64,000 nucleotides of DNA from Minisyncoccota bacterium (lineage in GTDB: Bacteria; Patescibacteriota; Minisyncoccia; Phycocordibacterales; UBA9973). Positions within the stretch are counted from its first letter, which is position 1. The number at the start of each line of letters is the position of its first letter. Below are positions 12,636 through 56,024 of this stretch, piece by piece. A program made the translations under genes and the position numbers. Below the pieces are notes generated by a model. That model had not been told where the DNA came from. It ran no database searches and worked only from the letters and a program-made list of their open reading frames with translations. Where the stretch lies: contig CALNZI010000009.1 of NCBI GenBank assembly GCA_942491275.1, positions 21,938-85,937 of the forward strand, given 5' to 3'.

Positions 12636-13610
12636 GTGGCTACTCAAATAGAACAATTAAAGAGAGAATTCCTGGAACATGTGGAAATTGAGAAAGGAAA
12701 TAGCCTAAAAACGGTTAATAACTATGATTATTATCTTTCTCGTTTTTTTAAATTTACAAAAATATCAAATGTGAAGGAAATAACAGATGATAGAATTCGA
12801 GAGTTTCGTCTTTATTTAAATCGTCAGCCGGGAGTTAAAATCAGAGGACAGCAGTCTAGTACGTTAAAGAAAAATACTCAGAATTACCATTTGATTGCTC
12901 TTCGTTCTTTTCTTAAATATTTAATGAAGCGAGAGATACCAGCCCTCTCCCCTGACCGAATTGATTTGGCTAAAATAAAAGAAAGATCTTTGGATTTAAT
13001 TTCTACAGATGAATTGAAGCGTCTTTTAAATGCACCCAATGAAGTTCTCAAGACGTTGGACGTCGAAATACTCGGACGTCCAACGTCTGAAAAAAGTTCG
13101 ACTTTGAAAAGACAGAAAATTTTACGGGACAGAGCAATTTTAGAATTATTTTTTTCAACAGGGCTTCGTCTTTCAGAACTCTGCTCCCTTGATAGAGATT
13201 TAGATTTATCAAAGGATGAATTCTCCGTTCGAGGAAAAGGAGAAAAGGTTCGTGTAGTTTTTCTTTCTAGTTCAGCCAAAGATGCCATTCGTGAATATTT
13301 AAAAGCCCGAAAAGATATGGATGAGCCTTTGTTTGTTCAGTATTCTAGGAATGTTGGGAAAGCTAATCGTCTAACTCCTCGATCCATCGAGAGGATAGTT
13401 AAGTATTATGCCATTGTTGCTGGTATTTCTAAAAAAGTTACACCCCACGTGATTCGACACTCTTTTGCCACAGACCTTCTTTCTAATGGAGCCGATATCC
13501 GTTCAGTTCAGATGATGCTAGGTCATGCTAATATTGCAACAACTCAAATTTATACCCATGTCACCGATAAACAACTTCGTGATGTGCATAAAAAATTTCA
13601 TAGTGAATAA
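12636..13610 (+). CDS. xerC: Tyrosine recombinase XerC/XerD family, with a ~20-aa insertion
   Basis: SAM-like N-terminal domain. Catalytic region RDRAILELFFSTGLRLSEL ... HVIRHSFATDLL ... LGHANIATTQIYTHV. GTG start 6 nt after TGaTATAAT. Confidence 0.9.
   Translation: MATQIEQLKREFLEHVEIEKGNSLKTVNNYDYYLSRFFKFTKISNVKEITDDRIREFRLYLNRQPGVKIRGQQSSTLKKNTQNYHLIALRSFLKYLMKREIPALSPDRIDLAKIKERSLDLISTDELKRLLNAPNEVLKTLDVEILGRPTSEKSSTLKRQKILRDRAILELFFSTGLRLSELCSLDRDLDLSKDEFSVRGKGEKVRVVFLSSSAKDAIREYLKARKDMDEPLFVQYSRNVGKANRLTPRSIERIVKYYAIVAGISKKVTPHVIRHSFATDLLSNGADIRSVQMMLGHANIATTQIYTHVTDKQLRDVHKKFHSE
13051..13088. repeat. Perfect 14-bp-arm GC-rich palindrome inside the xerC coding sequence
   Basis: AGACGTTGGACGTC gaaatactcg GACGTCCAACGTCT. 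It encodes part of the extra KTLDVEILGRPTS segment. Confidence 0.85.
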
Positions 13611-16122: not shown

Positions 16123-16226
16123 ATTAGTGTTTCTTTGTGATCACGAATATTTTTTTGGTGAAAAATTTCTTGATCTCGCCTCAGTACTGTAGTGCCTGTG
16201 GCTTGCACAAAGTATCCTATATTTTG

Positions 16227-16298
16227 TGCACCTAGAGGGATTCGAACCCCCAATAACGGTTCCGAAGACCGTCGTGATATCCATTTCACCATAGGTGC
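16227..16298 (-). tRNA. tRNA-Arg (anticodon UCG), CCA not encoded
   Basis: Hand-folded cloverleaf: GCACCTA/TAGGTGC acceptor, anticodon loop CTTCGGA, T arm GGGGG-TTCGAAT-CCCTC. 72 nt. Confidence 0.85.
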
Positions 16299-16397
16299 AG
16301 CATTAATTAATAACAGTGAAATTATATACTATTTTAGCAATATATCAAATAAATATTTAGCTTTATTTTATATAGATACTTTTAGGAAGACAAAAGA

Positions 16398-16426
16398 TTG
16401 CAATATGGAATTGGAATTAGTATAAT
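16398..16426 (+). promoter_or_regulatory. Promoter upstream of tRNA-Gly(GCC)
   Basis: TTGCAA (16398-16403), 17-nt spacer, TATAAT (16421-16426). Confidence 0.6.
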
Positions 16427-16492
16427 ACCCAATACTGATACGAAAAAAATATCTGAATGTAAGAATTTTTGTCGTCAGAAAAGCATAGTATT

Positions 16493-16563
16493 GCGGAATT
16501 GGTTTAGTGGTAGAACACGTCCTTGCCAAGGATGAGACAGGGGTTCGATTCCCCTATTCCGCA
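16493..16563 (+). tRNA. tRNA-Gly (anticodon GCC), CCA not encoded
   Basis: GCGGAAT/ATTCCGC acceptor, anticodon loop TTGCCAA, T arm AGGGG-TTCGATT-CCCCT. 71 nt. Confidence 0.9.
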
Positions 16564-16567
16564 CAAA

Positions 16568-27309: not shown

Positions 27310-28500
27310 TTATTCTGTACCGTCATCGACGATACCATCATCTAACATACTATCATCGGTTATTTCTTCCTCAACTTCTCCATCGGGATTGATGCTTTTA
27401 ATATCAATTCTCCATCCGGTAAGTTTTGCGGCTAGGCGAACATTTTGCCCTCCTTTACCAATGGCTAATGAAAGTTGATCGTTGGCTACTTCTACCATGG
27501 CACGGTGTTCTTCTTCATTAACTTCAATCTTAAGAACATCGGCTGGAGAGATTGCGCTGGAAATATAGGTTCCAGGATCAGCAGACCAAGGAATTATATC
27601 AATTTTTTCACCACCAAGCTCGCCCATTACTGTTGTAACTCGAATTCCTCTTTGTCCGACACATGAACCAACTGGGTCAATGTGTTCATCGTTTGAGTAA
27701 ACAGCGATTTTTGACCGGGCTCCTGCTTCACGAGCAATGGCTTTAATTTCAACAACTCCTGAAGCAATTTCTGGAGCTTCCATTGAGAATAAGCCTTCAA
27801 TAAGTTGAGGGTGGGTTCTGGAAAGTTTAAGATTCACTCCTCTTGGAGTTTCTTCAACAGAATATAGGTAAGCTCGGATGTGGTCACCTCGTTTATAAAA
27901 TTCTCCTGGAATTTGTTCTTCGGGAAGAATTATTCCAGTGGCACGGTTAAAATCAATGTAAACAATTCCACGCTCAACCTTTTGAATTGTCCCATTTATT
28001 ATTTCTCCTTCTTTACTTCCGTATTCGTCAATTATTATTTCTCTTTCAGCTTCACGAATTTTTTGAATGATAACTTGTTTAGCTGTTTGAGCAGCGATAC
28101 GTCCGTAGTCTTCTTTGTTTTCTAGAGGAAAAATTAATTCTTCTTCTAACTTCACATCTTTTTTAATTTTTTTAGCATCTTCCAGAAGGATGTGATGCTC
28201 TTCATTGTAACGAACCCTCTCATCATCTTCAGCTATTTCGACTTCTTCAGCGTCTTCATCTTCGTTCTCTTCAACTATTCGTACCAAAGATTCATCAACC
28301 ACAATTTTAATTTGGCTGAATTCAATATCTCCAGTTTCAAAATCAAGTTTTGTTCGGATGATTTGACCTTTTTTGCCGTAATCTTTTTTATAAGCGGCGG
28401 CGATGGCCTGTTCAATAGCCTCGATGATTTTCTCTCGAGGTATTTTCCGCTCTTCCTCGAGTTGCTCAAGGGCAGATTTCATTGTTTTTAGATCTAACAT
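27310..28500 (-). CDS. nusA: Transcription termination/antitermination factor NusA
   Basis: N-terminal domain, S1 and two KH domains (PVGSCVGQRGIRV, AIGKGGQNVRLAAKLTGWRIDI), and an acidic tail. Confidence 0.93.
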   Translation of the reverse strand: MLDLKTMKSALEQLEEERKIPREKIIEAIEQAIAAAYKKDYGKKGQIIRTKLDFETGDIEFSQIKIVVDESLVRIVEENEDEDAEEVEIAEDDERVRYNEEHHILLEDAKKIKKDVKLEEELIFPLENKEDYGRIAAQTAKQVIIQKIREAEREIIIDEYGSKEGEIINGTIQKVERGIVYIDFNRATGIILPEEQIPGEFYKRGDHIRAYLYSVEETPRGVNLKLSRTHPQLIEGLFSMEAPEIASGVVEIKAIAREAGARSKIAVYSNDEHIDPVGSCVGQRGIRVTTVMGELGGEKIDIIPWSADPGTYISSAISPADVLKIEVNEEEHRAMVEVANDQLSLAIGKGGQNVRLAAKLTGWRIDIKSINPDGEVEEEITDDSMLDDGIVDDGTE

Positions 28501-28744: not shown

Positions 28745-30049
28745 ATGAAAAATATCTCCAAAATTTTTATCGTTTTAGTTTTGACTCTTTTTGTTTCAGG
28801 TTTTACCTTTGCAGAAGAAGCTACAATAAAAACTAATTCTTCTAAGGTTACTGTTGTCGCAAATTTAAACATACAGGAAGCTCAGGTTATTGCTCAAATT
28901 GATAATGTTTTTAATATTTTATTTTTTCTTCAAAACGGAGAAGGAATTCAAGCTGGGGTTAAGTACGGAGTTCAGTTAATAAAAGAAACAGATAAGGGTC
29001 AATTTATTATGGATGAGTATATTTATCCTGAATTATTGGCTGTTCCTTCAAACAGTAGGGTAAAGAAGGATATTATTTATAAAGCTCCTGAGAATATAAG
29101 TGGTGAATATTCGCTCTTCCTAAACGCCAAAAACAAAAGTGGTCTTGGTTTAGGGATTGCCTATGTTGGTAAGGTCATCCTTTCCTCTAAAACTCAGAAG
29201 GCAGAAATACTTCCAGAAACGTGTTATCTGTCTGTGGAAGGAGAAGATCCTCAAATTAAATATAATCTTTCTCAGGGAGTGGACATAGATTCAGAAGAGA
29301 ACCTTGTAATTAATTGTAATATTGTGAATTCATCTGATAAAGAAATTTCTGTTACACCAATTTATGAAACTCATTATCGAAATATTTATGGAGAAGTGGT
29401 TCCTCAAAAAGGAGGTGATTCCATTCTTGTAAACTTAAAAGCTGGAGAAAATAAAGAAGTTTCATTGATTTTACCTAAAGCCATTGATCCTCAAGCCTAC
29501 GATGTGATTCTTTCTTTTGATTCTCAGGGGGTATTTTCAAATCAAGTGGTAGCTCACTATGTTTTGCGTGGTTTAAGTGCAACCATTCAAAATTTCTCAC
29601 TGGACAAAGATTTCTATAAAAAAGATGAAACTGCACACTTTAATCTTAGCTGGGCGGCTTCGGCGGATAGTTTTCCAGGAGCCCGAAAAACTGGAACAAC
29701 TGATATGGCGAGTATAACTCTGGAGCTTTCAATAAAAGATGGTTTGTTGAAGAATTGCATTAAACCAATCAATAAAGTAATCAATGAAAACCTACGAGAC
29801 GGAACAGTTGAAATTCAAGCTCCAGTTATTGCTGATTGTGATGAAATGACGGCAGCCCTCTCTTTGAGAGATATTGATGGTTCGCTTCTAGCGGCTCAAA
29901 CACTTTCCTTTGATACAAAGATTGAAAAAGATGAAGAAGATTTGTCTTCAACCTATGCTTACATTATTCTGGGAGCCATTGTCGTTATTGGGCTCGTGAT
30001 TTATTTTATTAATAATAAAAAAGAAAAAGAAAATGAAAAAACTATTTAA
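28745..30049 (+). CDS. Secreted protein with a C-terminal TM anchor (434 aa), surface locus gene 1
   Basis: Signal peptide ...GFTFA/EE. C-terminal helix YAYIILGAIVVIGLVIYFI followed by a Lys-rich tail. Confidence 0.6.
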   Translation: MKNISKIFIVLVLTLFVSGFTFAEEATIKTNSSKVTVVANLNIQEAQVIAQIDNVFNILFFLQNGEGIQAGVKYGVQLIKETDKGQFIMDEYIYPELLAVPSNSRVKKDIIYKAPENISGEYSLFLNAKNKSGLGLGIAYVGKVILSSKTQKAEILPETCYLSVEGEDPQIKYNLSQGVDIDSEENLVINCNIVNSSDKEISVTPIYETHYRNIYGEVVPQKGGDSILVNLKAGENKEVSLILPKAIDPQAYDVILSFDSQGVFSNQVVAHYVLRGLSATIQNFSLDKDFYKKDETAHFNLSWAASADSFPGARKTGTTDMASITLELSIKDGLLKNCIKPINKVINENLRDGTVEIQAPVIADCDEMTAALSLRDIDGSLLAAQTLSFDTKIEKDEEDLSSTYAYIILGAIVVIGLVIYFINNKKEKENEKTI

Positions 30050-31133
30050 TATATTTTTAGTGGGAGGATTTGTTTTAGTCACTTTTGCTTTTTTGCCAAT
30101 CTTGGCTGATGCGAACATGTTAGCAATTGAGCAGGATGCAATTGAGGAGGATGGAGGTGGAGGAGGGGGTACTATATATAGAACTGCTGCAACCACTCCA
30201 CCACCTCCTGCCCCCGCAACTTCTCTTAATGTAACTTATGGTCTTAATGACTCGGTATATGAAGTAAATGAAGATGTGGTCTTAACCGCAAGCGTATCAA
30301 GGAATGTTTGTTCTAATGTTTTTTCTGATATAAGATTGACTGCTCGCATTCCCGCAGTTAGTCCTTCTTATCAAAGTGTTATACACCAAGTTGTTGGAGG
30401 GGGTATTACTATTAATGGTTCAGAAGATTTTACAGGCCCTTCAACTCCTGGAAATTATGTAATGCAAGGTAAAGTAGAAGTCTATGCTCCCGCTTATTAT
30501 GTTTCATGCCCTGAAGGAACAGATAGCGATGATTTTGGGCTTGGATGTTTTAGCTCTTATACAACAACTGGTTTGATAGATGTCCAAGATGAACGTAACG
30601 CAGATTATGGTACGGAAATGACTTATGATGTAACCTATTTCCCAGGAGGGACGACTGTTTTAGATAGTGCAACCTTTGAAATTCCTTTCACGGTTGTAGC
30701 ACCACTTCGAGATGTGTTGCCAATAGAGGCAGATATTCACGTAAAAGTTGATGGTGTTGTTTATGAAGGAACAACGACTGTTTCAGCAGGACAATTTGTA
30801 GAGGTTTATTGGGATAGTATAAATGCCGTAAGTTGTACAGCCAGGGGATTAGATTCAGATGGACAGACGGTTATGAATAAAGCAGATTTATCAAGAGCTG
30901 ATAGAGATGCAATTAATATGAATTTAGTAAAAGATACTGTGTTTTCATTAACCTGTAGTGGTGTAAGCCCCTCTCCGGGGAGCACAAGTACAAGTCTCGT
31001 CCCGGTGGGTAAGTGTTATTTAGGAGGGGATTCCTTTAGAGAATTTTATGTTTTAAATGGGATAATGTATTACATAGGAACAACTGCGAGAGTATTACCT
31101 GAGATCTCTTGCGTTTATTATAGTGTTAGATAG
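30033..31133 (+). CDS. Secreted protein with Gly6 and Pro-rich linker (366 aa), surface locus gene 2
   Basis: Signal peptide ...LPILA/DA and the DGGGGGGTIYRTAATTPPPPAPA tract. Overlaps the end of gene 1 by 17 nt. Confidence 0.6.
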   Translation: MKKLFNIFLVGGFVLVTFAFLPILADANMLAIEQDAIEEDGGGGGGTIYRTAATTPPPPAPATSLNVTYGLNDSVYEVNEDVVLTASVSRNVCSNVFSDIRLTARIPAVSPSYQSVIHQVVGGGITINGSEDFTGPSTPGNYVMQGKVEVYAPAYYVSCPEGTDSDDFGLGCFSSYTTTGLIDVQDERNADYGTEMTYDVTYFPGGTTVLDSATFEIPFTVVAPLRDVLPIEADIHVKVDGVVYEGTTTVSAGQFVEVYWDSINAVSCTARGLDSDGQTVMNKADLSRADRDAINMNLVKDTVFSLTCSGVSPSPGSTSTSLVPVGKCYLGGDSFREFYVLNGIMYYIGTTARVLPEISCVYYSVR

Positions 31134-31208
31134 GAGATAAGAATTCTTTTATTTTATAAAAGAAAAAATGTTTTAGTTTATTAAAATAATTATTTAAATC
31201 TATAAGAT

Positions 31209-31241
31209 AAAAAAAGTCATTCGTATTTACGAATGACTTTT
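31209..31241. terminator. Bidirectional terminator
   Basis: AAGTCATTCG tattta CGAATGACTT flanked by A/T runs. Confidence 0.8.
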
Positions 31242-31249
31242 ACTTTTTA

Positions 31250-32239
31250 TTAATGAACATAAGTAACTCTTGTCCAAAAAGAGTAGGTGCTTCCATCTAA
31301 AGTATTGATACCTTCTCCTTTTATATCAAAACGTAATGAATCTTTTGTTAAAACATTTATTGGATATGTTTTATTCTGATCTGGAAAATAAAGACTAAGC
31401 TCTTCATTATCATTAAGAAGTTCATAGTTTTCACTACTTGCTGGAAACCCGTTTTCTTTATTACCGTGGATTTCTTTGCCGTCTAGTGTATAGTCCCAAG
31501 TTTCAGCTTTTTGTTCTGGACTAAGGACATAAGGAATATACCAAGGATTCTCTGGAACATACATTTTTCTTTCTAGTAAATTCGTATGCCAGATTTTTTT
31601 AGTTAATAGCCCAATTGGGCTAGTTGTCCAATCGCCTACTAAGATTTTTATTTCTTCAGTAGTTGTTCCACCAGGCCCAATGGCCTTTAGGATAAAAGTA
31701 GAGTCACCAGTTAATTTTGGTGTTTCAAAAGTTCCATTTTCTCCAATAGTCACATTATTAAGTGTAATATTGGTGAATTCACCAGTTACACTCCAAGTGA
31801 ATGAAGTTGAACTATAATACGGCAATTGCTCCGTTGGAGCAGTTACTGTAATTGTTGGAGGATCCGGCAAAGGATTAACAATTACTGTTTTTTCTCTAGG
31901 AGGAACAGTTCTAAAATCTCCACTTATCATTTGAAAAGTGAATTTTGTAGTTTTCGTTAGTTTGACTGTTGTTGAGCCTTTAACAGATACTCTAATGTTT
32001 TTTACTATTAATCCTGTTTCAACTTCAATTTGCTTTAGTTCTCCCGATGTTCCTGTTCCATCCCAAGAAATGAATATTTCATCTTCTGGATAGATAGAAT
32101 TTGGAGTGACTTCAAATTCTGTGATTGTTGGAAAAATAGTTACTACTACTTCTGCTGGTTCTTTATCACATCCTGACATTAAAAACAATATCAAGATAAG
32201 AAAAAAAGTTACTGTCAGATTTCTGATTGTTGTTTTCAT
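31250..32239 (-). CDS. Putative lipoprotein (329 aa), surface locus gene 3
   Basis: Signal peptide ending in the lipobox-like LMSGC. Ig-like repeat texture. Confidence 0.55.
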   Translation of the reverse strand: MKTTIRNLTVTFFLILILFLMSGCDKEPAEVVVTIFPTITEFEVTPNSIYPEDEIFISWDGTGTSGELKQIEVETGLIVKNIRVSVKGSTTVKLTKTTKFTFQMISGDFRTVPPREKTVIVNPLPDPPTITVTAPTEQLPYYSSTSFTWSVTGEFTNITLNNVTIGENGTFETPKLTGDSTFILKAIGPGGTTTEEIKILVGDWTTSPIGLLTKKIWHTNLLERKMYVPENPWYIPYVLSPEQKAETWDYTLDGKEIHGNKENGFPASSENYELLNDNEELSLYFPDQNKTYPINVLTKDSLRFDIKGEGINTLDGSTYSFWTRVTYVH

Positions 32240-32263
32240 GTCTATTTGTTTTTAGTTAATGTT

Positions 32264-32320
32264 TGAGTTATTTTCCAGATCCACCTATCTATTAAATAGA
32301 TAGAATTAGAAAATAACTCA
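32264..32320. promoter_or_regulatory. Nested palindrome just upstream of the lipoprotein gene
   Basis: Outer perfect 12-bp arms TGAGTTATTTTC/GAAAATAACTCA enclose the inner palindrome CTATCTATT-a-AATAGATAG. Confidence 0.45.
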
Positions 32321-32565
32321 GCCACTAACCTTTTTCAAAGAATTGACTTTATTTAATTTTATTGTATCACATAAAAAATCATTTTGTCAATGTTTTTTAG
32401 GCTTTATTCCTTGAAATTAGTGAATATTCCTTTAAACAGCACCTCTGGTGGTGTTTTCTGAAAAAGAACATAGATATTGAGTTTGAGTGTTTTTTTTGTT
32501 TTTTCTTTAATTACAAAGGTGATATAATAATGATAGTTTTTATTTAATTCTTAAATTTTGAAAAA

Positions 32566-32717
32566 CTTTTTATTACTAACTAATTAATATATTTTAAAAT
32601 GAAACTTACAAAAATATTTTTTATAACCGCTACATTCTTATTGGTGTTCTTTTCTCTTGGGCTAATTAATAATGTTAGTGCGGATACTGCTTCTGATAAC
32701 GTGACTGTTAATGTTAC
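32566..32717 (+). repeat. 5' module (leader plus signal peptide plus first ~40 codons), near-identical to 35106-35257
   Basis: Read directly: identical from taattaatatattttaaaATGaaactt... through ...gtgactgttaatgttac. One mismatch in the upstream part. Confidence 0.9.
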
Positions 32718-35064
32718 GATTCCTCCTGCCAACTGTTCAGTTTCTCCCTGGGGAACAATTAATCATGGAGATTCAGTGACTGCTTATTTAACGACAACTG
32801 TTCCATATGGTAGTTCTTGTAGTTCTCAAACAAGAACATGTAATGACGGAACTTTATCAGGAACATATACTAATGATTCATGTATTGTTCAGCCTGCAGG
32901 AGCTATTACAGTTTCTCTTTCTGCAAGTCGTAACCCTGTTAATCTTCCAACAAATTCATCCACAATAAGTTGGTCAACATCTGGAAGTCCAACTTCTTGT
33001 ACTGCAAGTGGTGCTTGGACTGGAGTTAAAAGTACTAGCGGTGGAACTGAATCAAAAACTTATTCATCAGCTGGAACTTATACATATAGTATTACCTGTA
33101 GTAAAGCTGGGACATCTAATGCCACCGATTCTGTGACGGTAGTTGTTAATAGTCAGACCGTCACAAATTATACTTTAACCACCAGTAAATCTGGATCAGG
33201 AACTATTTCCTCTAGTCCTTCAGGAATAAGCTGTGGAACAGATTGTTCTCAATCCTATGCTTCTGGAACTTCGGTTTCACTTTCAGCCACACCCTCGTCT
33301 GGATATGTATTTTCCGGCTGGGGAGGAAGTTGTAGTGGTACTGGTTCTTGTACTGTTTCAATGACTTCTAATAAAACAGTGACGGCGGTGTTTACCTATA
33401 GTCCAAGTAGCTATACTTTGAATATTTCTAAAACAGGAACAGGGACGGGAACTGTCACGGGGTCTGGAATAAGTTGTGGGTCTGATTGTTCTCAATCTTA
33501 TACTTCTGGAACTTCGGTTACTCTCATAGCTTCTGCTACCTTAGGATCTTTTACTGGTTGGTCTGGATGTAATAGTACTTCTGGTTCTTCTTGTACTGTT
33601 TCAATGACTTCTAGTAAAACTGTTACAGCTTCTTTTACTTATACCGTCACAAATTATACTTTAACCACCAGTAAATCTGGATCAGGAACTATTTCCTCTA
33701 GTCCTTCAGGAATAAGCTGTGGAACAGATTGTTCTCAATCCTATGCTTCTGGAACTTCGGTTTCACTTTCAGCCACACCCTCGTCTGGATATGTATTTTC
33801 CGGCTGGGGAGGAAGTTGTAGTGGTACTGGTTCTTGTACTGTTTCAATGACTTCTAATAAAACAGTGACGGCGGTGTTTAGTGTTGCGGGAGTTCCCTCT
33901 GGTGTTATTAGTGTAAATAATTGTTCAATTCCCATTGGGTCAAGTTCTTGTTCTACTACAGTTACATGGGCGACTTCCAATGTAGATGCTTCTGAGACTC
34001 ACTTATTTAGAATTTCTCCTAATATGGCAATTCTTGCTTTTAGAGATCCTAGTGGCACCATCTCATCTTCTATTAGTTATGGCAATACAACCTTTGGCAT
34101 ATATTATTCAGCTAACTCCCCTGGATCTTTCCTTGCTCAAAAAACCGTGACGGCTTCTTGTGCTTCAGGGTCATCTTGGAACGGAAGTACTTGCGCTGTG
34201 GTAACCCCTATTACTGTTAATTTAACAGCATCACCTTCCTCGATGAATTTACCGACAAATTCGACAACCTTATCTTGGACAACAACAGGAAGCCCAACAA
34301 GTTGTATTGCGACCCAAGATTGGACTGGAACCCCAACGGCAGTTCCAAGTGGTAGTGCTGAGAGGACAGGAATGACAGAACAAACTTATAATTTTGGAAT
34401 TACCTGTAGTAAAGCAGGAGTAGCTGATGCTACTTCTTCTACTTCAGTTGTTGTTGGTGCTTCCTTAAATATGGCCCCAAGTTCTCCGATTATTACATCG
34501 GATACAACTAATTATTACAAAGATGTATTAACTAATTTTACTTTCACTTCAACAGATCCAGAAAATGACCAGATTAGATATGGAATAGATTGGGATATGA
34601 ATGGCTCAGCTGATATTTGGCTTCCAGAAACTGCACCTTCTGTAACCTACGTAAATTCTGGTGTATCTCAAACTAAGAACCATTCTTGGTCAACAACTGG
34701 AGCAAAAACTTTTCAAGCCCTTGCCCAGGACATTAATGGGGAAAATTCTGGATGGAGAACCTTTGATTTAAGTGTTGTTGAACAACCTGTTTCTCCAACG
34801 GCTTCAATAGATAGTGATATTTCTGTTGTCGAATATAATGGAAAAGCGGTTCTAAGTTGGACTTCAAGCAATGCGACTTCTTGTAATCTTTCAGGTGGTG
34901 GAATTTCACCAGTAGTTATTGGAACTTCAAATCTAGGATATACTACTCCATCCTTACCAGAAACTACAACATTTACTCTTTATTGTGTTGGGAATGGAGG
35001 AGATATAACTAAAACCATAACTATTATGGTGGGAGAGATAAAGCCCATATTTGAGGAAAGATAA
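32599..35064 (+). CDS. Large secreted repeat protein (821 aa) with InlB B-repeat-like and Ig-like Cys-pair domains, surface locus gene 4
   Basis: Signal peptide ...NNVSA/DT. Three G.G.V.S.P.GI.CG.DC...Y..GT.V.L.A....GY.F.GW.G.C.G.G.C.V.M domains. Also S.SW.T.G.P.SC.A domains. Confidence 0.7.
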   Translation: MKLTKIFFITATFLLVFFSLGLINNVSADTASDNVTVNVTIPPANCSVSPWGTINHGDSVTAYLTTTVPYGSSCSSQTRTCNDGTLSGTYTNDSCIVQPAGAITVSLSASRNPVNLPTNSSTISWSTSGSPTSCTASGAWTGVKSTSGGTESKTYSSAGTYTYSITCSKAGTSNATDSVTVVVNSQTVTNYTLTTSKSGSGTISSSPSGISCGTDCSQSYASGTSVSLSATPSSGYVFSGWGGSCSGTGSCTVSMTSNKTVTAVFTYSPSSYTLNISKTGTGTGTVTGSGISCGSDCSQSYTSGTSVTLIASATLGSFTGWSGCNSTSGSSCTVSMTSSKTVTASFTYTVTNYTLTTSKSGSGTISSSPSGISCGTDCSQSYASGTSVSLSATPSSGYVFSGWGGSCSGTGSCTVSMTSNKTVTAVFSVAGVPSGVISVNNCSIPIGSSSCSTTVTWATSNVDASETHLFRISPNMAILAFRDPSGTISSSISYGNTTFGIYYSANSPGSFLAQKTVTASCASGSSWNGSTCAVVTPITVNLTASPSSMNLPTNSTTLSWTTTGSPTSCIATQDWTGTPTAVPSGSAERTGMTEQTYNFGITCSKAGVADATSSTSVVVGASLNMAPSSPIITSDTTNYYKDVLTNFTFTSTDPENDQIRYGIDWDMNGSADIWLPETAPSVTYVNSGVSQTKNHSWSTTGAKTFQALAQDINGENSGWRTFDLSVVEQPVSPTASIDSDISVVEYNGKAVLSWTSSNATSCNLSGGGISPVVIGTSNLGYTTPSLPETTTFTLYCVGNGGDITKTITIMVGEIKPIFEER
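33157..33394 (+). repeat. 238-bp perfect direct repeat, copy 1 (partner 33643-33880)
   Basis: The nucleotide strings are identical by eye. They encode the identical 78-aa segment VTNYTLTTSKSGSG...NKTVTAVF. Confidence 0.9.
33643..33880 (+). repeat. 238-bp perfect direct repeat, copy 2
   Basis: Offset of exactly 486 bp from copy 1. A diverged third domain lies between them. Confidence 0.9.
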
Positions 35065-35105
35065 GAGATATATATGATATAATTAGTAACATAAAAATTA
35101 AATTA

Positions 35106-35257
35106 CTTTTTATTATTAACTAATTAATATATTTTAAAATGAAACTTACAAAAATATTTTTTATAACCGCTACATTCTTATTGGTGTTCTTTTCTCTTGG
35201 GCTAATTAATAATGTTAGTGCGGATACTGCTTCTGATAACGTGACTGTTAATGTTAC
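35106..35257 (+). repeat. Second copy of the shared 5' module
   Basis: See 32566-32717. Confidence 0.9.
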
Positions 35258-37049
35258 TAAACCCAGCATTTGTTCAATTGAAAATCTTGATATTACTCCT
35301 TCTAGAATAGACAAAGGAGATTCTGCTGTAATTTCTTGGACTACAATTAATTGTAGTGATGTAAGTTTTTCAAATAATACAGGCTATGATCTACAAGGAC
35401 CTGTTGTTAAATCAGGAAGTGTTTCAGTTTCTCCTGACAGTACCACTACTTTTGCTTTAAATGTTTCTAATCAAAATAGTAATGACTATGAGGCAGTAAC
35501 ACTTACTATTGATCAACCAAAAGTTTGTTCAATAAATAGTTTTACGGCTAGGGATACTTTGATAGTTAAAGGAGATTCAACAACTTTGTTTTGGAGTACA
35601 GAGAATTGCGATCAAGCCAGCATCTCTCCGACAATAAAGAATGTTGATTTAGATGGTTCACAGTCTGTTTCACCTACTTCAACCACGACTTATACTCTAA
35701 CTGCTTCTTTAAACGGAGTACCTGAAAGGGAAGCTATTAAAATTACAGTTATTTCTGCTCCGGTGATTTGTAAAATAAATACTTTTATAGCTAGCCCTTC
35801 CACTATAGATAAAGGCAGTTCAAGTACCTTGTCTTGGTCAACGGAAGATTGTGTAACTATTAATCTTTCTGGATTTGGAGAAGTTTCTAAATCTGGGAAT
35901 AGGTCTGTTTCACCTACTTCAACCACGACTTATACTCTAACCGCTGTTGACCAGTTTAGTAGTTCTAAAAAAGAGAATGCTACTGTTAACATTAAAGAAA
36001 AAGACGACCTAGTAACTTCCGGAGTTATTACTGCGCTTGATTGTAGAATTCCACTAAACAAAAGTAGCTGTGATTCAAAATTATCTTGGAGTACCATTAA
36101 TCCAGTTGGAACTTCAGCAGTTACAACTCCTACTAATATTACGGTTAAAACAGCTAATACGAGTACCGCCGCCTATTCAATGTCCTATGGTTTTCGTCGG
36201 TTTTATCTTTATAACGATGGAGCTGAACTTGATTCAGATTTAGCTAGGGCTTCCTGTGGATCAAATATTTGGAATGGAAGCAAGTGTGTAGCACCCCCAC
36301 CCCCAGTGGAGGATCCTTCAGGAACTCTTTCTGTCGAAAGTTGTGAAATTGCTGAGGGGTTTAGTACTTGTTCTTCAAAAGTAACTTGGACAACGAAAGA
36401 TTTAACTTCTAACCCAACGGCGGTAACTAGAAATAATCCAGACGGAACGGTGGTTTCCACAAGCATCTCAGGAGCAAATGTAAGTAATGTTGTAAATTAT
36501 GGAGCAAGTACCTATTATCTTTATCATAATGCAGTTGCTTTGGCGGAATTTCCTATTAATATAAGTTGTGTTTCTGGAAATGTTTGGGATGGAAATAAAT
36601 GTGTTCAAGGCTTGTTAGCCTCTGTTGATTTGACTGCTGATCCAATGACTATTGCTATGAATAGTTCATCAATACTAAAATGGACCTCAAGAAATGTTAG
36701 TTCTTGTTCAAGTTTAGATTTTAATACAGGTGGTAATACTGCTGGACGGGCTGAAGTTGGACCACTAAGTACAACTAAGGTTTATTCTATTTCTTGTACA
36801 GGAATAAATGGGCCAACTAAAAATTCTGTGACGGTTACGGTTGATTCCACGTTACCTCCTGATGGTGGGGATTCTGGTGGAGGCGATGGAAGTGGTAGTG
36901 GAACAGGTGATGGAACTGGAACTGGTGATGGTACGGGAACTGGGACAGGTGACGGAACAGGAGACGGGACCGGAACGGGTGATGGAACTACCGATGGTGA
37001 TGGAACAGATACGGACGATTTAATAAATCCTATTTATACAGAAGTTTAG
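35139..37049 (+). CDS. Large secreted repeat protein (636 aa), surface locus gene 5
   Basis: The first 40 aa are the same as gene 4. Three ~80-aa Ig-like repeats (C.I..F.A.P..I.KG.S..L.WST..C) and two domains shared with gene 4. Gly/Asp/Thr low-complexity tail. Confidence 0.7.
   Translation: MKLTKIFFITATFLLVFFSLGLINNVSADTASDNVTVNVTKPSICSIENLDITPSRIDKGDSAVISWTTINCSDVSFSNNTGYDLQGPVVKSGSVSVSPDSTTTFALNVSNQNSNDYEAVTLTIDQPKVCSINSFTARDTLIVKGDSTTLFWSTENCDQASISPTIKNVDLDGSQSVSPTSTTTYTLTASLNGVPEREAIKITVISAPVICKINTFIASPSTIDKGSSSTLSWSTEDCVTINLSGFGEVSKSGNRSVSPTSTTTYTLTAVDQFSSSKKENATVNIKEKDDLVTSGVITALDCRIPLNKSSCDSKLSWSTINPVGTSAVTTPTNITVKTANTSTAAYSMSYGFRRFYLYNDGAELDSDLARASCGSNIWNGSKCVAPPPPVEDPSGTLSVESCEIAEGFSTCSSKVTWTTKDLTSNPTAVTRNNPDGTVVSTSISGANVSNVVNYGASTYYLYHNAVALAEFPINISCVSGNVWDGNKCVQGLLASVDLTADPMTIAMNSSSILKWTSRNVSSCSSLDFNTGGNTAGRAEVGPLSTTKVYSISCTGINGPTKNSVTVTVDSTLPPDGGDSGGGDGSGSGTGDGTGTGDGTGTGTGDGTGDGTGTGDGTTDGDGTDTDDLINPIYTEV
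36861..37018 (+). repeat. Coding low-complexity tandem repeat (GDGT/GTGD units)
   Basis: ggtgatggaactggaact-type units encoding GGDSGGGDGSGSGTGDGTGTGDGTGTGTGDGTGDGTGTGDGTTDGDGTDTDD. Confidence 0.85.
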
Positions 37050-52582: not shown

Positions 52583-54274
52583 ATGGAATCTGAAATTAGA
52601 ATATGCCAGAATTGTAAGGGGAATTTTATAATCGAATCCGACGATTTTTCCTTTTATGAAAAAATTAAAGTTCCAGCACCTACTTTTTGTCCTGACTGCC
52701 GGAGGCAGAGAAGATTAGCTTGGCGTAATGATTTTACTTTTTACAATCGAGAGTGTGATTTGTGTGAAAGAAATATTCTTTCCCTGTATTCTTCGGATAA
52801 CCCTCAAGTAATTTATTGTAATAAATGTTGGTGGTCTGATAAGTGGGATCCAAAATCCTATGCTCAAGATTTTGATTTTTCACGACCATTTTTTGAACAG
52901 TTTAAAGAGTTCCGATTGAAGGTTCCTGCCCTAGCTTTATTTAATGATAACAATATTGGAAGTAAAAATTGTGAATATACTCAGGACTTTGCTTATGGGA
53001 AAAATTGTTACATGTGTATGGTTTCTTGGAAGATACAAGATTGTATGTATTTTACCTATGGAGCTGATGTGAAGGATTCTGTGGACTCTATGGGTATCTT
53101 TGGGACAGGAGAAGGACTCTATGAAGTTATGTATAGTGGGAAGTGTTACGGTTGTCGCAACGTGTATAAATCTTCAGATTTAATGAATTGCGCCTATTGT
53201 TTCAACTGCACTAATTGTGAAGATTGTTTCATGTCTGTTAATTTGAAGGGTAAAAAATATCATATTTTAAATAAAGAATATACAAAAGATGAATATAAAA
53301 AAATTATAGACTCCTATCAATTGAATACCTATAGTGGTTGTCAGAAAGCAGAAGCAGAATTTAATAAGTTTTTACTTACTCAACCAAGGAAACATGCCAG
53401 CATGAAAAATTGTTTAAAGTGCACGGGAGACAATTTAAGTAATAGTAAAAATTCAGAATTTAATTTTCATGCACGTCGTTCGGAGAATTCAAAATTTTTA
53501 GAAAATGGAGATACCCAAAAAGACAGTTATGATCTATGTGTAGGAGGAGAACTTTCAGAGTGTTACGAAGGATTAACTCCAGATCATTCAAATAAATCTT
53601 TATTTTGTATATATACTTGGAAGTGTATGGATATTCAATATTCAGAATCCTGTCAGGCTTCAAAGAATTGTTTCGGTTGTGTTGCTTTAAAACATACCAA
53701 TTATTCAATTTTTAATAAACAATATACAAAAGAGGAATATTTTGAATTAAAAAATAAGATTATTGAACATATGAAAAAAAACGGAGAATATGGAGAGTTC
53801 TTTCCGATAAGTAATTCTCCATTTGCCTACAATGAGTCCATGGCCATGATTTCTTTTCCTCTTACTAAAGAAGAAGCCATAAAGAAAGGATATAATTGGC
53901 AAGATAATGTTCAAGAAACAAGAGGTAAAACCACAATAAGAGAAATCCCAGATGCTATTGAGGAAGTTAAAGATTCCATTGTGGATGAAATTTTAGAATG
54001 TAATATTTGTCAAAGAAATTATAAGATTGTTGCAGATGAATTGTCTTTTTATCGTAAATGGCAGATTCCAATTCCTAGAAATTGTTTCTTTTGTCGTTTG
54101 AATAAGCGTTTTGAACTTCGTGGACCCTCGAAATTATGGAATCGGCAGTGTATGTGTGAGAAAGAAGGACACGATCATGAAAAAAGATGTGTAAATCAAT
54201 TTGAAACAACTTACTCCCCAGACAGACCAGAGATAGTTTATTGTGAAGAGTGTTATCAAAAGGAAGTATATTAA
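52583..54274 (+). CDS. Cys-rich multi-zinc-ribbon protein (563 aa), family member 2
   Basis: MESEIRICQNCKGNFIIESDDFSFYEKIKVPAPTFCPDCRRQRRL... ...YSPDRPEIVYCEECYQKEVY. TGgTATAAT plus 6 nt lies upstream. Confidence 0.75.
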   Translation: MESEIRICQNCKGNFIIESDDFSFYEKIKVPAPTFCPDCRRQRRLAWRNDFTFYNRECDLCERNILSLYSSDNPQVIYCNKCWWSDKWDPKSYAQDFDFSRPFFEQFKEFRLKVPALALFNDNNIGSKNCEYTQDFAYGKNCYMCMVSWKIQDCMYFTYGADVKDSVDSMGIFGTGEGLYEVMYSGKCYGCRNVYKSSDLMNCAYCFNCTNCEDCFMSVNLKGKKYHILNKEYTKDEYKKIIDSYQLNTYSGCQKAEAEFNKFLLTQPRKHASMKNCLKCTGDNLSNSKNSEFNFHARRSENSKFLENGDTQKDSYDLCVGGELSECYEGLTPDHSNKSLFCIYTWKCMDIQYSESCQASKNCFGCVALKHTNYSIFNKQYTKEEYFELKNKIIEHMKKNGEYGEFFPISNSPFAYNESMAMISFPLTKEEAIKKGYNWQDNVQETRGKTTIREIPDAIEEVKDSIVDEILECNICQRNYKIVADELSFYRKWQIPIPRNCFFCRLNKRFELRGPSKLWNRQCMCEKEGHDHEKRCVNQFETTYSPDRPEIVYCEECYQKEVY

Positions 54275-54278
54275 ACTT

Positions 54279-54301
54279 TGTAAAAGGACGGTCCTTTTAC
54301 A
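54279..54301 (+). other. Conserved hairpin 4 nt after the stop codon of family member 2
   Basis: TGTAAAAGGAC g GTCCTTTTACA. The apex AAGGACGGTCCTT is identical to 56028-56048. No T-run. Confidence 0.6.
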
Positions 54302-54317
54302 AAAAGAACTATCAAGC

Positions 54318-56024
54318 ATGAAATCAGAAACTAAAAATTGCCAAAACTGTAAAAAAGACTTCACTGTCGAGTCTGAGGACTTTTCTTTTTACGAAAAAAT
54401 CAAAGTCCCTCCACCAACCTTTTGTCCGGAGTGTAGGTTACAAAGAAGACTTGCTTGGAAGGTTAATTTGATGTTATTTAATCGTAAATGTGACCTTTGT
54501 GGGGAAAAAGGTATTTCTATGTATGAAGCTGACGCACCTTTTGTAGTCTATTGTCATAAGTGTTGGTGGAGTGATGATTGGGACTCTTTAGATTTTAAAA
54601 TTAATCTTGATTTTTCAAGACCATTTTTACAACAATGGAAAGAATTATTACACAAAACTCCACTGCTAGGTCTTTCTATAGATACTATTACAAGTGAACT
54701 TTCTCCTTACACCAATCATTGCGGTCATGCAAAAAATTGCTATATGATTTTTTATTCGGACCATAATGAAGATTGTTTATATGGATATCAGCTTACTAAT
54801 TGTAAAAATTGTATAGAAAATGGAGTAACAATGGAAAGTGAAAACTGCTATGACTCCCTGCATGTTTATAAATCTTTTAATATCGTGCACGGCATAGGAA
54901 ATAATCGCTCTTGCTATGACTCCTCTTTTATTAGAGATTGCGAGGGTGTACATGATTGTTTTGGAATAGCTAATGGAAAAAATTCGAAGTATATTTTTAT
55001 GGGACAACAGCTAATAAAAGAAGATTACATTGAAAAAATAAAAAACATTGACCTAGGTTCCCATAAGCAATATCTTTATTGGAAAAATAAATTTAACGAT
55101 TATTTAAAAACAACTTTTCCTAAGCCCAATTGGGAAACTTTATCACAGGACGTCACGGGGAGTTATGTTTTTAGTTCTAAAAATTGTAAGAATTGCTTTG
55201 ATGTAATTAATTGTAAAGATTCAAAATTTTTAATGTCTATTAAAGAAGGTCCCGTTAAAGATTCATATGATTATGTTGATTGGGGTTTAAATGCAGAATT
55301 GGTTTATGAATCAGCAACCATAGGAGAGAATGTTTCAAATATAAAGTTCTGCCATGAATCAGGCTTTAATATAAGAAATATTGAATATTCTAAACTTCAA
55401 ACAGGAGGATCTAACTGCTTTGGTTGTGTTTCAAGAAAGAAAGGACAATATTGCATTCTTAATAAACAATATACAAAAGAAGAATACGAGGAATTGATTC
55501 CTAGGATCAAACAACACATGAATGACATGCCATACATAGACAAGAAAGGAAGAGTGTATAAGTACGGAGAATTTTTTCCAATGGAATTCTCTCCTCATTC
55601 TTATAATGATTCATTTGCACATTTATTTTTCCCGAAGACAAAAGATGAGGTGGCTAGTGATGGTTTATCTTGGAAAGAGAATGAACTTAAAAAACATCAG
55701 ATTACTATTTTTTCAAAGGACCTTCCTGATAACATAAAAGAGACACCAGATGAAATTACAAAAGAAATTATTGGATGTGATTCTTGTGAAAGAGGGTATA
55801 AAATTGTCAAACAAGAATTAGATTTATCAAAAAAATTAAATGTACCTTTATCTAGAAGATGCCCTTTTTGTAGAATGGAAGAAAAAGTTAATATTTGGGT
55901 TTCTCAAATGAAAGAAATTGATAGAGTTTGTGATAAATGTAATATAAAATTCAAAACTCATTATTCTGAAGAAGATTCATCTAAAATTGTATGCAAAGAG
56001 TGTTACAAAAAAGAAGTTTATTAA
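54318..56024 (+). CDS. Cys-rich multi-zinc-ribbon protein (568 aa), family member 3
   Basis: MKSETKNCQNCKKDFTVESEDFSFYEKIKVPPPTFCPECRLQRRL... ...KIVCKECYKKEVY. Start set at 54318; the ORF-track start overlaps the upstream gene and the hairpin. Confidence 0.75.
   Translation: MKSETKNCQNCKKDFTVESEDFSFYEKIKVPPPTFCPECRLQRRLAWKVNLMLFNRKCDLCGEKGISMYEADAPFVVYCHKCWWSDDWDSLDFKINLDFSRPFLQQWKELLHKTPLLGLSIDTITSELSPYTNHCGHAKNCYMIFYSDHNEDCLYGYQLTNCKNCIENGVTMESENCYDSLHVYKSFNIVHGIGNNRSCYDSSFIRDCEGVHDCFGIANGKNSKYIFMGQQLIKEDYIEKIKNIDLGSHKQYLYWKNKFNDYLKTTFPKPNWETLSQDVTGSYVFSSKNCKNCFDVINCKDSKFLMSIKEGPVKDSYDYVDWGLNAELVYESATIGENVSNIKFCHESGFNIRNIEYSKLQTGGSNCFGCVSRKKGQYCILNKQYTKEEYEELIPRIKQHMNDMPYIDKKGRVYKYGEFFPMEFSPHSYNDSFAHLFFPKTKDEVASDGLSWKENELKKHQITIFSKDLPDNIKETPDEITKEIIGCDSCERGYKIVKQELDLSKKLNVPLSRRCPFCRMEEKVNIWVSQMKEIDRVCDKCNIKFKTHYSEEDSSKIVCKECYKKEVY

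Follow-up and report, generated by a model that had tools for sequence, protein, structure and literature searches.

Known surface systems differ in how their proteins are held in place and varied. Braun lipoprotein ends in ..YRK-COOH and is linked to peptidoglycan by L,D-transpeptidases, PDZ-type domains recognize C-terminal peptides, and TcpF carries a short terminal determinant for secretion that depends on the type IV pilus (T4P). The surface layer (S-layer) families Campylobacter fetus sap and Lactobacillus slp combine a constant leader and end with a variable, recombining middle, and type V pili use a donated C-terminal strand and a lipoprotein anchor. In the Patescibacteria, or Candidate Phyla Radiation (CPR), surface building and host attachment are largely unknown and most exported proteins are unannotated; all cultured members are, to our knowledge, episymbionts. 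Here we describe a five-gene locus between nusA and tuf in a 64-kb stretch of CPR DNA (contig CALNZI010000009.1; "the window" hereafter). Its last two proteins end in a common hexapeptide, the tag, and we read it, with a probability of about 0.5, as a two-layer surface display locus in which a conserved membrane base (genes 1 to 3) accompanies variable, tag-bearing coat or adhesin proteins (genes 4 and 5).

Two described CPR systems stand closest. The Pam pilus is a Sec-dependent pilus of immunoglobulin (Ig)-like subunits joined by donor-strand exchange, with PamA/B/E/T pilins, the transmembrane (TM)-anchored, PapD-like chaperones PamC/D and the RbmA-like, TM-anchored terminator PamR (10.64898/2026.03.03.709456; protein sequences in the WP_2607632xx series). 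Patescibacteria have p6 S-layers, Ig-like multidomain proteins are predicted as their subunits, and the corresponding genes belong to the signal-peptide genes with the highest expression in Paceibacterales (10.1101/2024.05.28.596244, PMC10936435). Predicted S-layer proteins (SLPs) with six domains are A0A1G2EN61, A0A0G1WWP5 and GMX59286.1, and those with three domains are UMX47672.1, GMX57981.1 and A0A1G2QP48 (10.1101/2024.05.28.596244).

All five open reading frames (ORFs) of the initial annotation, which described them as secreted or surface proteins with signal peptides and no enzymatic motifs, lie where it had placed them between nusA and tuf.

27310-28500, minus strand, nusA, one flank of the locus
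28745-30049, plus strand, gene 1, 434 aa
30033-31133, plus strand, gene 2, 366 aa
31250-32239, minus strand, gene 3, 329 aa
32599-35064, plus strand, gene 4, 821 aa
35139-37049, plus strand, gene 5, 636 aa
37286-38485, plus strand, tuf, opposite flank of the locus

Each protein starts with a basic n-region and a hydrophobic h-region followed by an AXA-like or lipobox site, with predicted cleavage at FTFA|EE (gene 1), ADA|N (gene 2), LMSG|C (gene 3) and VSA|D (genes 4 and 5), so the proposed signal peptides fit sequence rules as well as the N-terminal helices of the AlphaFold2 (AF2) models. Searches of Pfam and NCBIfam returned no enzyme family for any of the five and only one curated match, PF18998/TIGR02543 in gene 4; PDB sequence searches gave a PKD-like match for gene 4, low-complexity noise for gene 5, and nothing for gene 1 or for a profile of the Cys-pair domain described below. 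Export signals called by rule together with nonenzymatic beta folds thus support the view that the five products are probably exported or surface located and nonenzymatic.

A hexapeptide shared by the ends of genes 4 and 5

The common C-terminal hexapeptide of genes 4 and 5 (tails EIKPIFEER and LINPIYTEV) had not been noticed in the initial annotation.

35044-35061, plus strand, C-terminal hexapeptide of gene 4, PIFEER-COOH, an instance of P-x-[FY]-x-E-x
37029-37046, plus strand, C-terminal hexapeptide of gene 5, PIYTEV-COOH, with codons differing from those of the gene 4 tag

Because the two tags differ in both codons and stop codon, selection on the protein, and not recent conversion, appears to have kept them alike. 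Large signal-peptide proteins in the same slot of relatives have similar endings: ..KKPIFIEN, ..SPGYIEN, ..VPGFIED, ..QPDFIEN, ..PVFIER, ..PKFEEF, ..PVFQET, ..PEFREF, ..NPNYIEQ, ..VNFDES / ..VNFDEI, ..KPVYKEL and ..KPFFQER. The window and 89 CPR loci together supplied 791 unique complete ORFs of 150 aa or more. In this set, the pattern [FYW]-x-E-x stands at the C-terminus, in the observed register, in 27/219 secreted-like and 9/572 other ORFs (Fisher p 2e-9), and several of those nine are fusions with TM helices. Shifting the pattern by +1, +2 or -1 leaves 3, 3 and 1 secreted-like ORFs against 16, 17 and 2 others, and replacing the Glu by Asp or Lys leaves 1 and 2 against 0 and 6. The tag is thus statistically real. 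Of the 27 secreted-like cases, 16 have Pro at position -6, and Lys predominates at positions -9 to -7; an aromatic residue at -4 and an invariant Glu at -2 precede a variable last residue.

The tag stands behind unrelated last domains and, in gene 5, is disordered in the AF2 model. Homologues of gene 5 with CPR-type leaders in a large database end in KKPVIKEN, PDPIFDEN, KKPKYIEQ, KKPTYQEN, KKPWFIEM, KKPTFIEN, KKPGYKEE, NIPIFKEI, KKPIFNEN and KRPWFIEN; two tag-bearing homologues there carry names, both Paceibacteria. Other gene 5 homologues with CPR-like signal peptides have a C-terminal TM helix and a basic tail at the tag position. A HMMER search with gene 4 gave 47,627 matches, dominated by InlB B-repeat proteins of other phyla, and was of use only as a negative control. 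Of its 150 best non-CPR InlB-repeat proteins, none contains the full tag and one matches it in part. Full-text searches found no description of the tag in the literature, the NCBIfam sorting-domain models gave no match to genes 4 and 5 at E <= 1, and the LPXTG signature of sortase substrates is missing from both, as ..KPIFEER and ..NPIYTEV come without a hydrophobic segment.

Two further motifs were seen among these proteins. A different C-terminal sequence, ..PP(P)KHRAVRH-COOH, ends dozens of Ig-domain proteins of ~570-650 aa that are gene 5 homologues (P0061, P0066, P0070, P0085, P0088, P0095 and ~30 others), the named ones from Acidobacteria/Thermoanaerobaculia. A second motif, W-x-x-P-T-x-x-P-P-x-G-N-x-x-x-P-[IL]-N, stands directly behind the signal peptide of exported proteins near tag genes in CPR relatives (loci L022, 4377-5879 and 5989-6486; L023, 176-1030 and 2679-3854; L008, 6028-6744; L004, 1815-4940; and L006).

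The remainder of genes 4 and 5 consists of domain arrays behind a common leader, and each gene has its own extended -10 box. In the following list, the domains of gene 4 come from its translation, those of gene 5 from the AF2 model, and the boxes and leaders from the sequence.

32520-32528, plus strand, extended -10 box TGATATAAT, 71 nt before the gene 4 ATG
32566-32717, plus strand, leader, copy 1: 33 nt of 5' untranslated region, signal peptide and first 12 mature residues
32725-32886, plus strand, gene 4, small Cys-rich domain following the signal peptide
32887-33156, plus strand, gene 4, first Ig-like domain
33157-33885, plus strand, gene 4, three InlB B-repeats (residues 187-429), PF18998, E 4e-26
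33157-33394, plus strand, perfect 238-nt direct repeat, copy 1, the first InlB B-repeat unit
33643-33880, plus strand, perfect 238-nt direct repeat, copy 2, the third InlB B-repeat unit, 100% identical, with sharp edges
33886-34212, plus strand, gene 4, Cys-pair domain
34213-34464, plus strand, gene 4, second Ig-like domain
34465-34773, plus strand, gene 4, PKD-like domain (residues 623-725), match to PDB 4xed, E 4e-6
34780-35034, plus strand, gene 4, third Ig-like domain
35075-35083, plus strand, extended -10 box TGATATAAT, 56 nt before the gene 5 ATG
35106-35257, plus strand, leader, copy 2
35259-35996, plus strand, gene 5, three 80-aa Ig-like domains after the signal peptide
36006-36614, plus strand, gene 5, two Cys-pair domains
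36618-36848, plus strand, gene 5, last Ig-like domain
36861-37013, plus strand, gene 5, disordered (G/D/T)n tract

Gene 4 is thus a nine-domain beta-sandwich array. It scores 91.1 bits against PF18998 (Flg_new_2; cut-off 23.6) and 30.6 against TIGR02543 (cut-off 20.95), which places it in the InlB B-repeat family at the level of that domain only. Gene 5 has neither an InlB B-repeat nor a Pfam match. Of the arrays first described for both proteins, then, the Ig-like and Cys-pair domains occur in both and the InlB repeats in gene 4 only. The two proteins (BLASTP E 3e-52) do have two domain types in common, as had been proposed: 80-aa Ig-like units and a Cys-pair domain of ~105 aa with the consensus MSGTL..C.I..G.SSC...L.W.T.NP ... 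FYLYNN ... ASC.SGT.WNG..C. This domain also occurs in large exported proteins of relatives, and neither it nor the small Cys-rich N-terminal domain has sequence relatives in Pfam or the PDB. The AF2 model of gene 5 comprises six beta-sandwich domains (predicted local distance difference test score [pLDDT] 82) with disorder at residues 576-636, and Foldseek matches it to titin, PirB, contactins, macroglobulins and the S-layer proteins EA1 and 7ptp. Searches of Pfam and NCBIfam found no known surface anchor in either protein.

Evidence of recombination, described in the initial annotation as ongoing, is apparent in both genes. The 152-nt leader common to them has a single mismatch, and identity stops sharply at codon 40. 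Within gene 4, the middle InlB unit is only 63% identical to the two perfect 238-nt units that flank it, and gene 5 contains a 39-nt identical tract between two Ig units. Copy number differs at homologous loci of relatives as well: two Joint Genome Institute contigs (L108 and L111), 96-99.9% identical, differ by ~1.7 kb, the length of two additional 326-aa tag genes that stand in tandem and have the same leader, and in L011 two tag genes have identical last 25 residues. The tag genes number three in tandem in L108 (3596-6133; 326, 326 and 269 aa, repeat units 98% identical) and one in L111 (8633-9052). A whole-window repeat search found no template/variable repeat pair besides the tracts described, so diversification by a diversity-generating retroelement was rejected; no reverse transcriptase was found among the subset of ORFs scanned. 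Separately, Y1-transposase-like (REP/IS200-type) ORFs lie near the nusA-adjacent slot in L001 (8831-9649), L008 (4232-4894) and L133 (3510-4196, with a weak Pfam Y1_Tnp match), and these may drive rearrangement there.

The claim that GC content sets genes 4 and 5 apart did not survive, their overall GC (0.395 and 0.378) being the same as that of nusA and tuf (0.390 and 0.398). The accompanying claim of a different codon texture stood for second codon positions alone, where GC is 0.62 in gene 4 and 0.52 in gene 5 vs 0.35 +/- 0.05 in other genes, owing to their Ser plus Thr (36% and 28%) and Gly content. At third positions, genes 1 to 5 range over 0.19-0.24 (genes 4 and 5, ~0.20) vs 0.232 +/- 0.030 for the other 53 ORFs; the texture thus reflects amino acid composition and not foreign codon usage. 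A foreign origin as a horizontal island was rejected in view of these native third positions, the lack of tRNA genes at the borders and the presence of positional homologues in the slot across the class.

Genes 1 to 3 and the slot beside nusA

Genes 1 and 2 overlap by 17 nt and are the split form of a two-TM hairpin protein, a relationship that is also new beyond the initial annotation. Homologues of gene 1 (55 detectable, all unannotated) include 24 gene 1-gene 2 fusions of 640-760 aa, in which a signal peptide, a gene 1-like ectodomain, a TM helix, a short Lys-rich loop, a second hydrophobic helix with an AXA-like site and a second ectodomain follow one another. A phmmer match to residues 463-672 of P0017 (E 2e-11) shows gene 2 to be a homologue of this second ectodomain, and jackhmmer from gene 2 leads to the C-terminal halves of many fused homologues. 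By inferred topology, both ectodomains lie outside the cell, and the AXA site kept in the fusions suggests that the gene 2 part may be released by signal peptidase even there.

In gene 1, a signal peptide is followed by three beta-sandwich domains, a C-terminal TM helix and a short basic (Lys-rich) cytoplasmic tail. AF2 modeling, applied to genes 1 and 5, predicted beta-sandwich arrays in both; in the alignment-based gene 1 model (pLDDT 85, predicted template modeling score 0.76) the domains occupy residues 41-146, 153-274 and 279-388 and the helix residues 400-429, in keeping with the C-terminal TM anchor first proposed. Gene 1 has no Pfam or NCBIfam match and no LPXTG-like motif in spite of its helix and basic tail, only a sub-threshold hit to TIGR03065 (E 0.88). 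Foldseek returns noncatalytic beta-sandwich arrays only (RbmA, fibronectin type III [FnIII] arrays, transglutaminase C-terminal barrels and macroglobulin [MG] domains), the best bacterial match being the Vibrio matrix protein RbmA (E 2e-7), at a TM-score on the target of 0.39-0.44 that is generic for FnIII/Ig folds. Polar residues invariant across the family, e.g., N64, T209, N266, Y272, S278, K288 and Y291, suggest a specific binding surface, not a mere spacer. Gene 2 has a signal peptide, a linker with the Gly6 and Pro-rich tracts that had been pointed out (G6 and PPPPAP) and a Cys-containing, beta-rich ectodomain.

Gene 3 encodes a lipoprotein precursor (..FLMSG|C), and its lipobox MKTTIRNLTVTFFLILILFLMSG|C, the LMSGC noted earlier, satisfies the PROSITE-type pattern [LIVMFWSTAG](2)-[LIVMFYSTAGCQ]-[AGS]-C. 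Its Ig-like N-terminal domains show a weak resemblance to the Ig-like units of genes 4 and 5, and its C-terminal ~130 aa have an unmatched fold. A search of 5.8 billion proteins recovered gene 3 itself only; a faint but repeated similarity to same-position lipoproteins of relatives (E 2e-6 to 2e-5) points to a fast-evolving lipoprotein that recurs at the same position. Its orientation is inverted with respect to its counterpart in L002 and L081 and not inverted with respect to L083, L098 and L136. Three elements lie in the intergenic regions on either side.

31212-31241, no strand assigned, terminator-like bidirectional hairpin with a 13-bp stem and T-runs on both strands, separating the convergent genes 2 and 3
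32255-32329, minus strand, gene 3 leader hairpin, a 33-bp inverted repeat in the divergent gene 3-gene 4 intergenic region
32361-32390, minus strand, gene 3 promoter-like site TTGACA-18 nt-TG-n-TACAAT, 11/12 positions matching

The leader hairpin folds at -40 kcal/mol (z = -9.3 vs shuffles); an Rfam search of the 28-38 kb region gave no credible family, and the hairpin itself had only a sub-threshold miRNA match (E 0.26).

The wider setting is that of core genes. H+-pyrophosphatase (PPase) and nusA (minus strand) lie on one side and tuf with the S10 ribosomal operon (plus strand) on the other, and the remaining genes of the window encode core machinery (PNPase, GlmS, CCA-adding enzyme, RNase Y, ClpP, trigger factor, ribosomal proteins and IF-3). 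In a NusA scan with one genome per species, the close relatives are exclusively metagenome-assembled genomes (MAGs) of Patescibacteria/CPR, at 58-81% identity and labeled Paceibacteria, Nomurabacteria, Taylorbacteria and similar; judged by these, the host is a Paceibacteria-like Patescibacteria/CPR bacterium. On the far side of nusA, the order PPase, trigger factor, ClpP, RNase Y is kept across relatives.

Comparison of the locus among relatives, found through nusA, gene 1 or gene 5 similarity and partly redundant, separates it into two parts. Gene 1 or the fusion abuts nusA in 13/46 metagenome loci from a gene 1-profile search and also in the genome loci L002, L003, L022 and L023; this adjacency extends to relatives with as little as ~61% NusA identity. 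A lipoprotein of 200-270 aa stands directly behind genes 1 and 2 in 14 loci, ~10 of them nonredundant. The window's layout recurs in L083, where a fusion, an opposite-strand lipoprotein, a 930-aa PF18998 protein ending ..VNFDES and a 749-aa protein ending ..VNFDEI precede the tuf-S10 operon, and L098 and L121 are similar. Elsewhere, L084/85 have gene 1, gene 2 and a 492-aa protein ending ..KKPFFQER in an unrelated genomic context, and in L108/L111 the block of fusion, lipoprotein-like gene and tag gene(s) is duplicated in tandem. Genes 1 to 3 thus form a conserved, syntenic module that is found elsewhere in genomes too and is duplicated as a unit. The slot of genes 4 and 5, by comparison, holds 0-3 genes of 269-1723 aa whose domain content varies freely. 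The initial annotation had treated the five genes as a single candidate adhesion or host-interaction cassette and had named invariance and synteny across distant relatives as the counterevidence. The five are not one uniformly variable cassette: the variation lies in the gene 4/5 slot only, and by that criterion genes 1 to 3 behave like a conserved envelope component.

Five tag proteins chosen solely by gene 5-domain similarity also map to this neighborhood. Four of the five lie directly upstream of nusA, two of them with an intervening lipoprotein (one on the opposite strand, as in the window), and the S10 operon contains the fifth, 4 kb from tuf. Since proteins picked by domain map there, the slot by nusA or tuf appears to be a class-wide home of tag proteins. 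The S10 case is L135 (6794-8608), a 604-aa tag protein ending ..NIPIFKEI between rplB and rpsS, and the insert also holds a diacylglycerol kinase gene and a gene for a 200-aa exported protein.

Two further features of the window stand apart. A XerC/D-type tyrosine recombinase gene (12636-13610; Phage_integrase, E 2e-40) lies ~2.6 kb from a four-tRNA cluster (Arg, Gly, Gly, Pro; 16226-18417), and no connection of either to the surface locus was seen. Three paralogous Cys-rich proteins of 560-600 aa (19701-21506, 52583-54274 and 54243-56024) have neither signal peptide nor Pfam match; they begin CQNCKxxFxIExxDFxFYEKIKVPxPTFCPxCRxQRRL and end ..EIVYCEECYQKEVY (third copy ..KIVCKECYKKEVY), and two copies share 84% identity over their 97-nt 3' ends.

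How the locus may work

We propose that genes 1 and 2, whose ORFs overlap and which form a single polypeptide in many relatives, are made in a 1:1 ratio. After Sec export, the gene 1 protein would be held in the membrane by its C-terminal TM helix, the gene 2 protein would be exported via its own signal peptide, the counterpart of TM helix 2 in the fusions, and the gene 3 protein would be tethered through its lipid anchor. A separate TGATATAAT promoter would drive each of genes 4 and 5, whose leaders and signal peptides are identical, and the products would be Sec-exported rods of nine and six beta-sandwich domains that serve as variable surface-coat or adhesin proteins. The constant leader would secure export, and the hexapeptide would act as a short linear retention or docking signal holding the rods on the cell surface, docking most plausibly to the neighboring lipoprotein or to the gene 1/gene 2 base. 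Leader and tag ends may double as recombination handles; duplication, deletion or conversion of domains and of entire genes between them would then diversify the exposed middle. Host adhesion is a candidate role, and a surface-coat or S-layer-like role would fit equally well.

Not every part of this proposal is equally secure. The analysis shows the gene structure, the rule-based export signals, the folds, the gene 1/gene 2 fusion family, the statistics of the tag, the recombination tracts and the division into base and slot, and the functional roles are inferred from these. That the tag retains proteins at the cell surface is somewhat more likely than not, and it may mark displayed proteins across the whole bacterial class. 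More doubtful is that P-x-[FY]-x-E-x-COOH is a new Paceibacteria/CPR surface-sorting signal, a bare hexapeptide without a TM segment that is read from its free carboxylate by a dedicated receptor; if true, this would be a minimal "dock-and-display" system in which the base on an ultrasmall episymbiont stays constant and its variable coat or adhesin proteins, built as Ig arrays, are exchanged. A lipoprotein lies within three genes of 14/35 tag genes vs 109/554 other genes (p 0.008), and one is next to a tag gene likewise in L134 and L136.

Several observations weigh against the display proposal. Genes 1 to 3 are suggested as receptor of the tag by gene order alone, and we regard this as a tentative idea, on balance not to be expected, because the association of base and tag is not obligate in cis: tag genes stand beside nusA without genes 1 and 2 within 10 kb in L001 (the closest relative), L004-L015, L028, L029 and L133-L137, and genes 1 and 2 with a lipoprotein are found without a tag gene within 10 kb in L090-L093, L096 and L129. 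Three tag proteins (L023, L087 and L122) also have a TM hairpin, with the tag ending the protein, so the tag is not simply a substitute for a membrane anchor. Neighborhood statistics are biased and nonindependent, the loci having been sampled mostly via nusA or gene 1, and clustering of the neighbors of tag genes was uninformative for this reason and because single linkage merged the Ig-like families. No known adhesive tip domain was recognized in genes 4 and 5 with Pfam and NCBIfam, the signal peptides are rule-based calls and not SignalP predictions, and the perfect 238-nt repeat could be an assembly artifact of the MAG.

Of the other explanations, the one that survives best, though it is unlikely, is that genes 4 and 5 (possibly also genes 1 and 2) encode lattice-forming S-layer or major coat subunits, with the tag acting in oligomerization at a symmetry axis or in lattice anchoring and the variation serving evasion of phages or predators, not host adhesion. 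The predicted, highly expressed Ig-like subunits of Patescibacteria speak for it, as do the exactly six beta-sandwich domains of gene 5 and its fold matches to EA1 and 7ptp, the strong extended -10 promoters of genes 4 and 5, and the fixed place of tag genes beside highly expressed core genes, once within the S10 operon. A constant leader and end around a variable, recombining middle is moreover the classical pattern of S-layer genes. However, the predicted subunits, going by their description, have three or six large assembly domains, which differ in count and size from those of genes 4 and 5 and the fusions, and two to three different tag genes per locus, encoding proteins of 269-1723 aa, would be unusual for a lattice subunit.

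A pilus-like donor-strand system of the Pam or type V kind, in which C-terminal tails complete the incomplete Ig fold of the next subunit or of an anchor, is a considerably weaker candidate. Here genes 1 and 2 would be a membrane-anchored chaperone or terminator, gene 3 the lipoprotein anchor, and genes 4 and 5 built into filaments. The Pam precedent, the gene 1 beta-sandwich domains with a C-terminal TM helix and RbmA as best bacterial match, the C-terminal strand and lipoprotein anchor of type V pili, and fusions whose two ends are gene 1 and the tag are all consistent with this. The conserved tail, though, spans only ~6 residues and does not show the hydrophobic alternation typical of known donor strands, the six gene 5 domains are all modeled as apparently complete sandwiches with pLDDT above 90, and genes 4 and 5, with nine and six domains, are far larger than pilins. 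PapD and FimC are, in addition, absent from the top 50 fold matches of gene 1, and Pam homologues have been reported mainly in Saccharimonadia and Microgenomatia, with ATP-synthase neighbors that the window lacks.

It is improbable that the tag is an export or presentation determinant read by T4P or type II secretion system-like machinery that pushes the large proteins through the wall or mounts them on pili. Short terminal determinants such as that of TcpF exist, and in L004, L008, L010, L011, L029, L133 and L136 a tag gene has nusA on one side and pilB-pilC-pseudopilin genes on the other as direct neighbors. The slot is flanked instead by tuf in the window, L001, L083, L098, L110 and L121 and by TIM/PGK in L134, which makes the pil adjacency look like lineage-specific synteny; pilB and pilC are absent from the 64-kb window, and the signal peptides are ordinary class I. 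Least probable of all is that five independent exported proteins have gathered in a recombination-permissive gap between core operons without forming a functional unit, with tail and leader due to common descent or gene conversion, since the high variability of the nusA-adjacent slot, its Y1-transposase-like ORFs in some relatives and the converted ends of the tandem paralogues in L011 and L108 are outweighed by a tag that is register specific, kept behind unrelated last domains at 58-81% NusA identity and different between genes 4 and 5 at the DNA level, by the fusion of genes 1 and 2 in 24/55 homologues, and by an order of genes 1 and 2 plus lipoprotein (plus tag gene) that recurs in different contexts and is duplicated as a block.

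Relation to known systems

Taken by analogy, the display locus probably works like fibrillar-adhesin or S-layer display, with an anchoring element that we did not find described in the literature. Like the fibrillar adhesins and Ig-array proteins of monoderms, genes 4 and 5 have a Sec signal peptide, a stalk of tandem beta-sandwich domains (Ig-like, InlB B-repeat and PKD-like), a low-complexity spacer before the C-terminus, a domain number that varies by repeat recombination and a sorting element at the extreme C-terminus. Unlike those and the LPXTG adhesins, they lack LPXTG, a hydrophobic segment with basic tail, and SLH, LysM, GW or CWB domains, and they end in the bare P-x-[FY]-x-E-x-COOH without a recognized adhesive tip.

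With the two-component S-layer of SlaA and SlaB, the locus has in common that a membrane-anchored protein, gene 1, is encoded with a secreted one, gene 2, as is SlaB with SlaA. The predicted SLPs of Patescibacteria resemble it in having a signal peptide and several Ig-like domains, in occurring across the class and in their probably high expression. They are described with other domain sizes and counts, and here several divergent paralogues occupy each locus (10.1101/2024.05.28.596244). The Pam pilus is likewise CPR specific, has Sec-exported Ig-like components and no trans-envelope machine, and in PamR offers an RbmA-like, TM-anchored possible counterpart to the tandem beta-sandwich and C-terminal TM architecture of gene 1 (10.64898/2026.03.03.709456). 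It differs from our locus, which yielded no two-domain pilin carrying a donor strand in its linker and in which genes 4 and 5 are rods of nine and six domains, as well as in the three domains of gene 1 and its fused or split partner gene 2, in CPR class and in gene neighborhood; the 50 best PDB fold matches of gene 1 and of gene 5 include no Pam entry.

The fusion family of genes 1 and 2 and the lipoprotein define what appears to be a conserved, CPR-restricted envelope module, a possible target for work on enrichment cultures, and recombination bounded by leader and tag suggests concretely how bacteria with such reduced genomes could vary their surface. If the tag were only a family relic, the locus would be an ordinary set of hypothetical Ig-like surface proteins. 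If the tag holds, six residues in fixed register would provide a simple way to list the surface-displayed proteins in Paceibacteria MAGs. In that case it would resemble Braun lipoprotein and the ligands of PDZ-type domains, in which a few C-terminal residues in fixed register from the free carboxylate decide the place of an exported protein, and would differ from them in sequence, with its aromatic residue at -4, invariant Glu at -2 and variable last residue. As in the PEP-CTERM/exosortase, GlyGly-CTERM, PGF-CTERM and LPXTG/sortase systems, a lineage-restricted C-terminal signature is found on otherwise unrelated exported proteins. The signals of those systems combine a motif with a TM helix and a cluster of basic residues, and membrane enzymes cleave them, whereas the tag of genes 4 and 5 has nothing behind it. 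Should the tag hold, it would point to a way of sorting or docking that differs from the sortase, exosortase and SLH systems.

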